Assembly: GCF_011045215.1 (NCBI RefSeq)
Contig: NZ_CP049201.1
Source: Escherichia coli
GTDB lineage: Bacteria; Pseudomonadota; Gammaproteobacteria; Enterobacterales; Enterobacteriaceae
Length of the DNA stretch: 64,000 nucleotides
Strand: one strand, 5' to 3'
Shown: piece by piece, positions 52,305 through 52,577 of the stretch
How the letters are laid out: every line of letters begins with the position of its first letter
How positions within the stretch are numbered: the stretch's first letter is position 1
Made by a program: the position numbers and the translations under genes
The notes under the pieces: model-generated
What the model saw: only the letters and a program-made list of their open reading frames with translations
Told to the model about the DNA's origin: nothing
Databases searched by the model: none

Positions 52305-52577
52305 GAGTTCCCCGCGCCAGCGGGGATAAACCGTCGTCGAGAATCAGCACGAATGCCGCAACTGCGAGTTCCCCGCGCCAGCGGGGATAAACCGTGTGTA
52401 CGTCAGGCCCGTACCAGCATACCCCTGAGTTCCCCGCGCCAGCGGGGATAAACCGCCTACTCTCCTATTGCAGCAATTGCTGCGTCAGTGTTCCCCGCGC
52501 CAGCGGGGATAAACCGGGTACAAAAGAGGCCCCATTCTGGCAGGGCTCGAGTTCCCCGCGCCAGTGGGGATAAACCA
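52305..52577 (+). CRISPR. CRISPR array, type I-E (E. coli-type) repeats: five 29-bp repeats, four 32-bp spacers
   Basis: Repeats GAGTTCCCCGCGCCAGCGGGGATAAACCG at 52305, 52366, 52427, 52488 (GTG variant) and degenerate 52549-52577 (...CCAGTGGGGATAAACCA); spacers at 52334-52365, 52395-52426, 52456-52487, 52517-52548. Confidence 0.95.

Follow-up and report, generated by a model that had tools for sequence, protein, structure and literature searches.

A CRISPR array of five 29-nt repeats and four 32-nt spacers (S1–S4), with a period of 61 nt, was located at positions 52305–52577 of the window (the whole 64,000-nt stretch of Escherichia coli DNA analysed here), between queE and ygcE (Table 1). The spacers agreed exactly with those listed in the original prediction, and its coordinates held for these five repeats, but a second, degenerate array belonging to the same locus (53031–53169) had been missed. 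Searching the window with the 27-nt repeat core (≤3 mismatches) returned seven matches, compared to 0.00 expected from 100 dinucleotide-preserving shuffles. Three of the array repeats were exact copies (repeats 1–3, GAGTTCCCCGCGCCAGCGGGGATAAACCG), one was an A2T variant and the terminal repeat carried two changes. By direct comparison these are the type I-E repeats of E. coli K-12, in agreement with the type first assigned to the array, and the 29-nt E. coli type I-E (type 2) repeat (GWGTTCCCCGCGCCAGCGGGGATAAACCG), the 61-nt period and unique spacers whose length (32 nt) is within the 32–33 nt of the type were all present. No second match to any spacer, i.e. no self-target, was found within the window at ≤6 mismatches.

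Variation among the repeats was limited. Repeat 4 begins GTGTTCCCC where the others begin GAGTTCCCC, an A-to-T change at repeat position 2 that had been misread as G-to-T and that corresponds to the known CRISPR-A/CRISPR-T polymorphism (PMC3737337). The same variant repeat lies between S3 and S4 in strain TUM13936, and the variant in the window is therefore inherited. The terminal repeat was indeed degenerate, carrying C17T and G29A, the latter also found in K-12. A hairpin with a 7-bp stem and a 4-nt loop was predicted in all five repeats (−13.2 to −15.2 kcal/mol, z approximately −3.3 to −3.6); in repeat 5, C17T converts a G-C pair to G-U and the predicted structure (−13.2 kcal/mol) is the same as in the other repeats. 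The repeat transcript is thus predicted to fit a stable stem-loop of the kind bound and cut by Cas6e. No CRISPR repeat family in Rfam was matched, and two sub-threshold Chlorobi-1 matches were regarded as chance.

Table 1 Features of the locus, of the partner cas operon in a sister assembly and of the prophage related to the spacer targets. Positions are those of the window unless another record is named.
Feature	Position	Strand	Evidence or remark
queE (ygcF), leader-side flank	51295–51966	+	223-aa ORF; annotated queE in syntenic E. coli records
Leader 2.3, AT-rich queE-to-array intergenic region	51967–52304	+	323/340 (95%) identical to K-12 CRISPR-II leader
Promoter-like site TTGGTA-16 nt-TAAAAT	52249–52276	+	Consensus scan 9/12; 29 nt upstream of repeat 1
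Repeat 1	52305–52333	+	Leader-proximal, integration site; predicted hairpin −15.1 kcal/mol
Spacer S1, newest	52334–52365	+	Tail tape-measure gene of prophage family
Repeat 2	52366–52394	+	Repeat-core match
Spacer S2	52395–52426	+	DUF3383 (sheath-like) tail gene, prophage family as for S1
Repeat 3	52427–52455	+	Repeat-core match
Spacer S3	52456–52487	+	Common to TUM13936 and GCA_009900925.1
Repeat 4, CRISPR-T variant (GTG instead of GAG)	52488–52516	+	Sequence comparison
Spacer S4, oldest (anchor)	52517–52548	+	Matches traD of F-like conjugative plasmids
Repeat 5, terminal (C17T, G29A)	52549–52577	+	Hairpin kept via G-U pair
AT-rich 0.5-kb stretch between CRISPR2.3 and CRISPR2.2	52578–53030	+	Conserved in Res13, TUM13936, PapRG-06-5 and K-12
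CRISPR2.2 fossil array	53031–53169	+	Three degenerate repeats: 53031–53059, 53080–53108, 53141–53169
ygcE, trailer-side flank	53215–54693	−	492-aa ORF; annotated ygcE; exact protein on 14 public contigs
cas3			899 aa (GCA_910665095.1/Logan operon)
cse1			520 aa (GCA_910665095.1/Logan operon)
cse2			178 aa (GCA_910665095.1/Logan operon)
cas7			351 aa (GCA_910665095.1/Logan operon)
cas5			248 aa (GCA_910665095.1/Logan operon)
cas6e			216 aa (GCA_910665095.1/Logan operon)
cas1			307 aa (GCA_910665095.1/Logan operon)
cas2			122 aa on NCBI contig, 97 aa on Logan contig
STEC384 prophage, uspF to ttcA	L022 16000–49000 and L023 1–10900
CsrB	29619–29978		Rfam
GcvB	11233–11438		Rfam
STnc490	11099–11222		Rfam
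ES036	7464–7506		Rfam
tRNA-Met (CAT)	5960–6036		Rfam

The flanking sequence was used to place the array. Region 51000–54500 had a match in 5,424 of the 5,426 complete E. coli genomes and, among the records listed, covered queE and ygcE, with most records annotating a CRISPR there. Its position between ygcE and queE, its AT-rich leader and the presence of a second short array ~0.5 kb away correspond to CRISPR-II, in which CRISPR2.3 has a promoter-containing leader and CRISPR2.2 lies ~0.5 kb distant (PMC3903273; PMC3737337). The AT-rich gap separating the two has also been described (PMC3903273; PMC10910852). The cas genes of E. coli, together with the CRISPR2.1 array, are found at the iap-cysH locus (PMC3903273; PMC3737337); the two arrays of the species are ~20 kb apart and only CRISPR1 has adjacent cas genes (PMC10910852). 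We identify the feature as CRISPR2.3 of E. coli CRISPR-II, one of the two type I-E spacer arrays of the species, with a probability of roughly 0.9.

The missed CRISPR2.2 array is a fossil whose three degenerate repeats are separated by pseudo-spacers of 20 and 32 nt. Two of the seven repeat-core matches fell within it, the third CRISPR2.2 copy being more decayed. Its degenerate repeats were conserved in five other strains. It was 100% identical in strain Res13, and the 32-nt pseudo-spacer was identical in four other strains and K-12. The distance from repeat 5 to the next recognisable repeat was 501–503 nt across strains (502 nt in the window, counting up to the 53080–53108 relic, and 503 nt in K-12). 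Complete conservation of this relic array between distant strains was an observation in its own right, as was the finding that its most decayed repeat (ATATTCCTTGTAAAAACAGGGATAAACCG) still folds into the 7-bp hairpin of the array repeats through the paired changes C9T/G18A and C11T/G16A, plus one G-U pair. This pairing could reflect either past selection on the hairpin or coincident transitions. Within the AT-rich gap, positions 52667–52686 (AGTTCCCCATGCTAGATAAG) resembled a repeat with an internal deletion and may represent a decayed repeat.

On the other side of the array, the leader was ~98% identical to that of strain Res13, and its last 100 nt differed from K-12 at three positions. The repeat-proximal ~60 nt of the leader are required for spacer integration (PMC3903273, PMC3737337, PMC5224486). 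The orientation originally proposed, with the leader on the queE side, was corroborated by the conserved AT-rich leader abutting repeat 1, the degenerate repeat at the far end and the polar sharing of spacers between strains (described below), as well as by the published map, in which the leader adjoins CRISPR2.3 (PMC3903273). A promoter-like site at 52249–52276 is the putative array promoter, although such sites numbered seven over the region scanned compared to 4.2 expected in shuffles. At leader position 52271 (−34 relative to repeat 1) the window has T, whereas both K-12 and Res13 have A. The difference changes AAAAAT to TAAAAT in the putative −10 hexamer and borders the part of the leader reported to be important for integration. 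In addition, sequence blocks within leader positions 52189–52264 (AATCAATGGGTTA.GTG.TCTTTAA and AGTTGGTAGATTGT) recur in assembly GCA_910665095.1 (L019 18540–18610), where they span the cas2 3′ end and the leader of CRISPR-I. This similarity suggests that the CRISPR-II locus may have arisen by duplication of a cas2-leader-array segment.

The surroundings of CRISPR-II displayed heterogeneity between strains. From eno to queE (47551–51122), one LemA-family gene and three genes with TPM domains are present in the window as well as in Res13 and TUM13936; K-12 and GCA_009900925.1 have a shorter version (yqcG plus ygcG), and the flank is therefore variable. In assembly GCA_910664955.1 (OU349849.1) the ygcE-side array is followed not by queE but by a fimbrial usher-chaperone operon and aroC-region genes (L012), an arrangement suggestive of a large rearrangement that broke at CRISPR-II. 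In assembly GCA_910665035.1 (L015) an IS66-family transposase adjoins ygcE and no repeats are present. The best identity of the window to any complete E. coli genome was 96.8% over 51000–54500 and 98.9% over 54700–64000. These values had raised the possibility that the DNA was not from E. coli, a reading discarded once near-identical draft assemblies came to light. Elsewhere in the window, Rfam models identified CsrB, GcvB, STnc490, ES036 and one tRNA-Met (CAT), the corresponding site in K-12 presumably holding three tandem initiator tRNA genes (metZWV).

No cas genes were found in the 64-kb window by tblastn with the eight type I-E Cas proteins. The original statement to that effect was accurate, and reflects where the window ends, namely at ygcN (62661–63932). 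In TUM13936 the genes to the right of the array are ygcE, yqcE, ygcW, ygcU, ygcS, ygcR, ygcQ, ygcP, ygcO, ygcN, queD, cysJIH and hok, after which come cas3 through cas2, CRISPR-I and iap; this type I-E operon is complete and its cas3 starts ~17 kb from the array. Since that is the normal array-cas3 distance and the window stops short of it, a short E. coli array with no cas gene within 64 kb should not be called an orphan.

A closer proxy for the genome of the window was available. Two of the 14 public contigs encoding the exact YgcE protein carry exactly S1-S2-S3-S4, and the exact YgcN protein was found on two contigs only, CAJVFD010000005.1 of the draft assembly GCA_910665095.1 and one from a Logan assembly, both of which run on into cas3 and cse1. 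The array in GCA_910665095.1 is identical to that of the window, and sequence identity between the two reaches 99.98% across 20.8 kb, with 5 of 20,786 nt and 1 of 4,381 nt differing. Its eight cas genes (cas3 to cas2) have no internal stops and are followed by CRISPR-I and iap; precomputed Pfam matches in the operon include Cse1, Cse2, Cas_CT1975, Cas5d, Cas1 and Cas2. Apart from cas2, the Cas proteins have the same lengths as in TUM13936, to which they are 87–100% identical. Compared to K-12, the Cas3/Cascade proteins are only 21–34% identical and Cas1/Cas2 84–86% identical, i.e. the operon is a non-K-12 variant, corresponding to the major variant reported earlier (PMC3903273). Projected onto the window, cas3 would start at ~69,620, ~5.6 kb beyond position 64000. 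The idea of an orphan array was rejected on this evidence, as a near-identical assembly with the same array carries the full operon, and the cas genes of the window's own genome most likely sit shortly beyond the end of the window. The GCA_910665095.1 contig also displayed peculiarities of its own. Its cas2 has lost the stop codon (122 aa, versus 97 in the Logan contig and TUM13936), and its CRISPR-I (cas2/array region, L019 18258–19146) contains a duplicated spacer, together with a repeat that breaks off after GCGCC and runs directly into part of a spacer, a junction apparently formed by microhomology between the two at GCGCC. The Logan contig stops after two repeats of its CRISPR-I array.

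The spacers were searched against mobile elements. Their proposed role as a record of plasmid and phage exposure was supported for three of them, S4 matching a plasmid gene and S1 and S2 one prophage family. The S4 match was to traD, which encodes the coupling protein of F-like conjugative plasmids; it covered 29/32 positions in F and ~1,500 PLSDB records and 28/32 in ~3,000 more, and the match occurred at 2,957 plasmid places in the complete E. coli genome set. The protospacer in F is preceded by an ATG PAM, and its mismatches to S4 fall at spacer positions 14, 18 and 30. In Cascade structures, every sixth spacer position is flipped out and unpaired. By analogy, positions 18 and 30 would be flipped out and only the mismatch at position 14, which is outside the seed, should matter. 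ATG (CAT on the other strand) is a motif of the O157-type variant and the most frequent PAM for spacers of A-type arrays (PMC3737337). In the literature we found no explicit mention of the S4 sequence or of traD-matching E. coli spacers, which does not show that they are unreported. For S3, no protospacer was found in the phage collection, plasmids or complete E. coli genomes, nor in IMG/VR with each of the three codon-phase masks. Masking every sixth position of S1, S2 and S3 likewise gave no match in IMG/VR. Against the phage collection the four spacers produced only chance-level 27/32 matches to Lactococcus phages (E = 5), and against plasmids S1–S3 produced only chance matches (E ≥ 3).

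S1 matched at 31/32 positions a prophage gene in the STEC384 and STEC379 chromosomes and the IMG/VR contig L021, the encoded protein matching PHROG tape-measure families (E = 1.8e−47); no exact match to S1 was found in species-representative genomes. The STEC384 prophage (NZ_CP091029.1, about 2,638,000–2,681,900) is ~44 kb in length and is flanked by uspF and ttcA; its regulatory genes are lambdoid and its tail module is of the contractile type. For S2, comparison with a similar spacer of strain PapRG-06-5 revealed differences only at positions 1, 4, 22 and 25, all in one codon phase. A pattern with that codon phase masked had a single match in IMG/VR, again L021. S2 matched L021 at 28/32 positions and the STEC384 prophage at 27/32, with every mismatch in the masked codon phase, whilst a shuffled S2 control gave 0 matches at ≤5 mismatches. 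The S2 target is a DUF3383 sheath-like gene of the same phage family as the S1 target, and the two protospacers are 2.6 kb apart on the same strand. Separately, the PapRG-06-5 spacer (L005 2500–2531) and S2 (52395–52426) are two versions of one spacer, sharing protospacer and register and differing at four positions. Their comparison implies that PapRG-06-5 and the lineage of the window may have taken the same protospacer independently, from diverged phages.

In these diverged relatives the PAMs deviated from the AAG or ATG expected, being AAA for S1 and TAG for S2. Each deviation falls at the third codon position of a phage gene, one synonymous change from AAG. As the two available relatives (L021 and STEC384) are only ~90% identical to each other, the true donor of S1 and S2 may well have had AAG; the alternative is that AAA and TAG arose by PAM escape. 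The CRISPR-I array of GCA_910665095.1 also contains two spacers matching this prophage family. The second spacer from its leader has 1–2 mismatches and an AAG PAM, and a truncated spacer has two mismatches. The targets of all four spacers from the lineage's two arrays lie in one 7-kb stretch of tail and baseplate genes, with both strands represented, and strand bias was consequently rejected as support for priming. More broadly, ~17 distinct spacers among 99 from related arrays of several E. coli lineages matched the STEC384 prophage family. AAG or ATG was the PAM for most of them, and several had no mismatch. On these matches, the family appears to be one of the main natural targets of E. coli type I-E CRISPR-Cas.

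Comparing spacer order across strains, as had been proposed, revealed a polar pattern in which S3-S4 are shared at the far end and S1-S2 are unique at the queE end. S3 and S4, with the GTG repeat between them and the C17T/G29A terminal repeat after them, were common to TUM13936 and GCA_009900925.1, the latter array consisting of S3-S4 only. S4 was found exactly in 83 complete E. coli records, two of which were sampled and proved to be CRISPR arrays, and it was the last spacer in 7/9 other public contigs encoding the same YgcE protein. In contrast to these shared spacers, S1-S2 occurred in two draft assemblies and were absent from the arrays of the 5,426 complete genomes. The description of the spacer content as strain-specific was therefore only half right: S1 and S2 are specific to the lineage, whereas S3 and S4 are shared with other strains. 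Array comparison shows that the lineage gained spacers once it had diverged from the S3-S4 state. S4 would be an old anchor spacer taken from traD of an F-like plasmid, with S3 added after it; S2 and then S1 would be later gains of this lineage, both drawn from a single temperate phage family and its tail module.

Array transcription, processing, interference and current activity are here modelled on the K-12 system. Having no cas genes of its own, the array would, on the best-supported reading, be served in trans by cas3-cse1-cse2-cas7-cas5-cas6e-cas1-cas2, ~17 kb away beside CRISPR-I. A promoter in the AT-rich, queE-side leader would transcribe it rightwards, and Cas6e would cut each repeat at the base of its hairpin to yield 61-nt crRNAs. 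Cascade loaded with these would recognise spacer-matching DNA adjoining an AWG PAM, which Cas3 would then degrade. Cas1-Cas2, aided by leader-bound IHF, would insert new spacers at repeat 1 (PMC5224486, PMC3737337).

In laboratory E. coli the type I-E system is normally silenced by H-NS. A substantial possibility, if somewhat short of even odds, is that the array is a silent relic in this strain, its cas operon repressed by H-NS or lost and its spacers inherited fossils that serve as lineage markers only. The system is generally silent in the laboratory, arrays change slowly and remain stable for long periods, and activity in natural isolates is undemonstrated (PMC10910852). S4 is unchanged in 83 complete genome records, F-like plasmids with a near-matching traD occur in about half of complete E. 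coli genomes, and the array is short with no cas gene in the window, all of which fit such a relic. However, the near-identical assembly has all eight cas genes intact, and the leader-proximal 100 nt are nearly unchanged from a leader known to support integration (PMC3737337). Furthermore, S1 and S2 were added after the split and CRISPR-I in the sister assembly also has spacers against this phage family, which together point to fairly recent adaptation. Tentatively, and with the odds against it, the leader-proximal prophage spacers of both arrays could represent a natural primed-adaptation burst by the non-K-12 I-E variant, active in wild E. coli, with S4 and its ATG PAM letting a derepressed system attack IncF plasmids.

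It is improbable that S1 and S2 were not acquired in place by Cas1-Cas2 but arrived by homologous recombination from the CRISPR-II of another strain, in which case the array would not be a record of what this lineage itself had met. E. coli CRISPR-cas regions are prone to genetic exchange (PMC3903273), and with the window flank at most 98.9% identical to any complete E. coli genome (54700–64000) the local history is hard to trace. However, CRISPR-II is more clonal than CRISPR-I (PMC3903273), no donor array with S1 or S2 was found among the 5,426 complete genomes, and the progression from S4 to S3-S4 to S1-S4 is what stepwise addition at the leader end predicts. A tandem repeat that arose by chance or is unrelated to CRISPR has a negligible probability; this reading was refuted by the shuffles, which gave no such matches, by identity to the E. 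coli I-E repeat, by the CRISPR annotation of the same site in records of other strains and by the mobile-element targets of the spacers.

Taken as CRISPR2.3, the array belongs to a well-known locus and nothing in it departs from the known picture; descriptions of the locus, with its leader, fossil partner array and trans-acting cas operon, go back more than ten years. The S1-S2-S3-S4 set is useful as a lineage or typing marker and is not a new kind of feature, and the spacer targets add to the known cases of E. coli arrays directed against prophages and IncF conjugation genes. These targets bear on, but do not settle, the question of whether E. coli I-E is ever active under natural conditions. 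Were the tentative primed-burst interpretation true, it would follow that in wild E. coli the system is turned on and works against these prophages.

The closest reference system is CRISPR-II of K-12 MG1655, which has the same site and orientation relative to queE and ygcE, the same 29-nt repeat and 61-nt period, a leader matching at 323/340 positions, the terminal G29A change, the 0.5-kb AT-rich gap and the CRISPR2.2 relic. However, the K-12 array has six spacers compared to four in the window, none of which are shared, and GTG (CRISPR-T) repeats where those of the window are mostly GAG (CRISPR-A); the partner cas operon, as seen in the sister assembly, is also unlike the K-12 operon. The CRISPR2.3 of TUM13936 (NZ_CP134358.1), which belongs to the same spacer group, has an identical trailer end, from S3 through the terminal repeat, Cas proteins 87–100% identical to those of the sister assembly and an operon 17 kb from the array, but in place of S1 and S2 it has nine different spacers upstream of S3, and its flanking DNA is only 97.9% identical. 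Finally, natural prophage-directed repertoires of E. coli (Dion et al. 2024, PMC10910852) target structural genes of integrated temperate phage, as S1 and S2 do. Those repertoires are from CRISPR1 arrays, whereas the array described here is a CRISPR2 array whose anchor spacer targets a conjugative plasmid gene.
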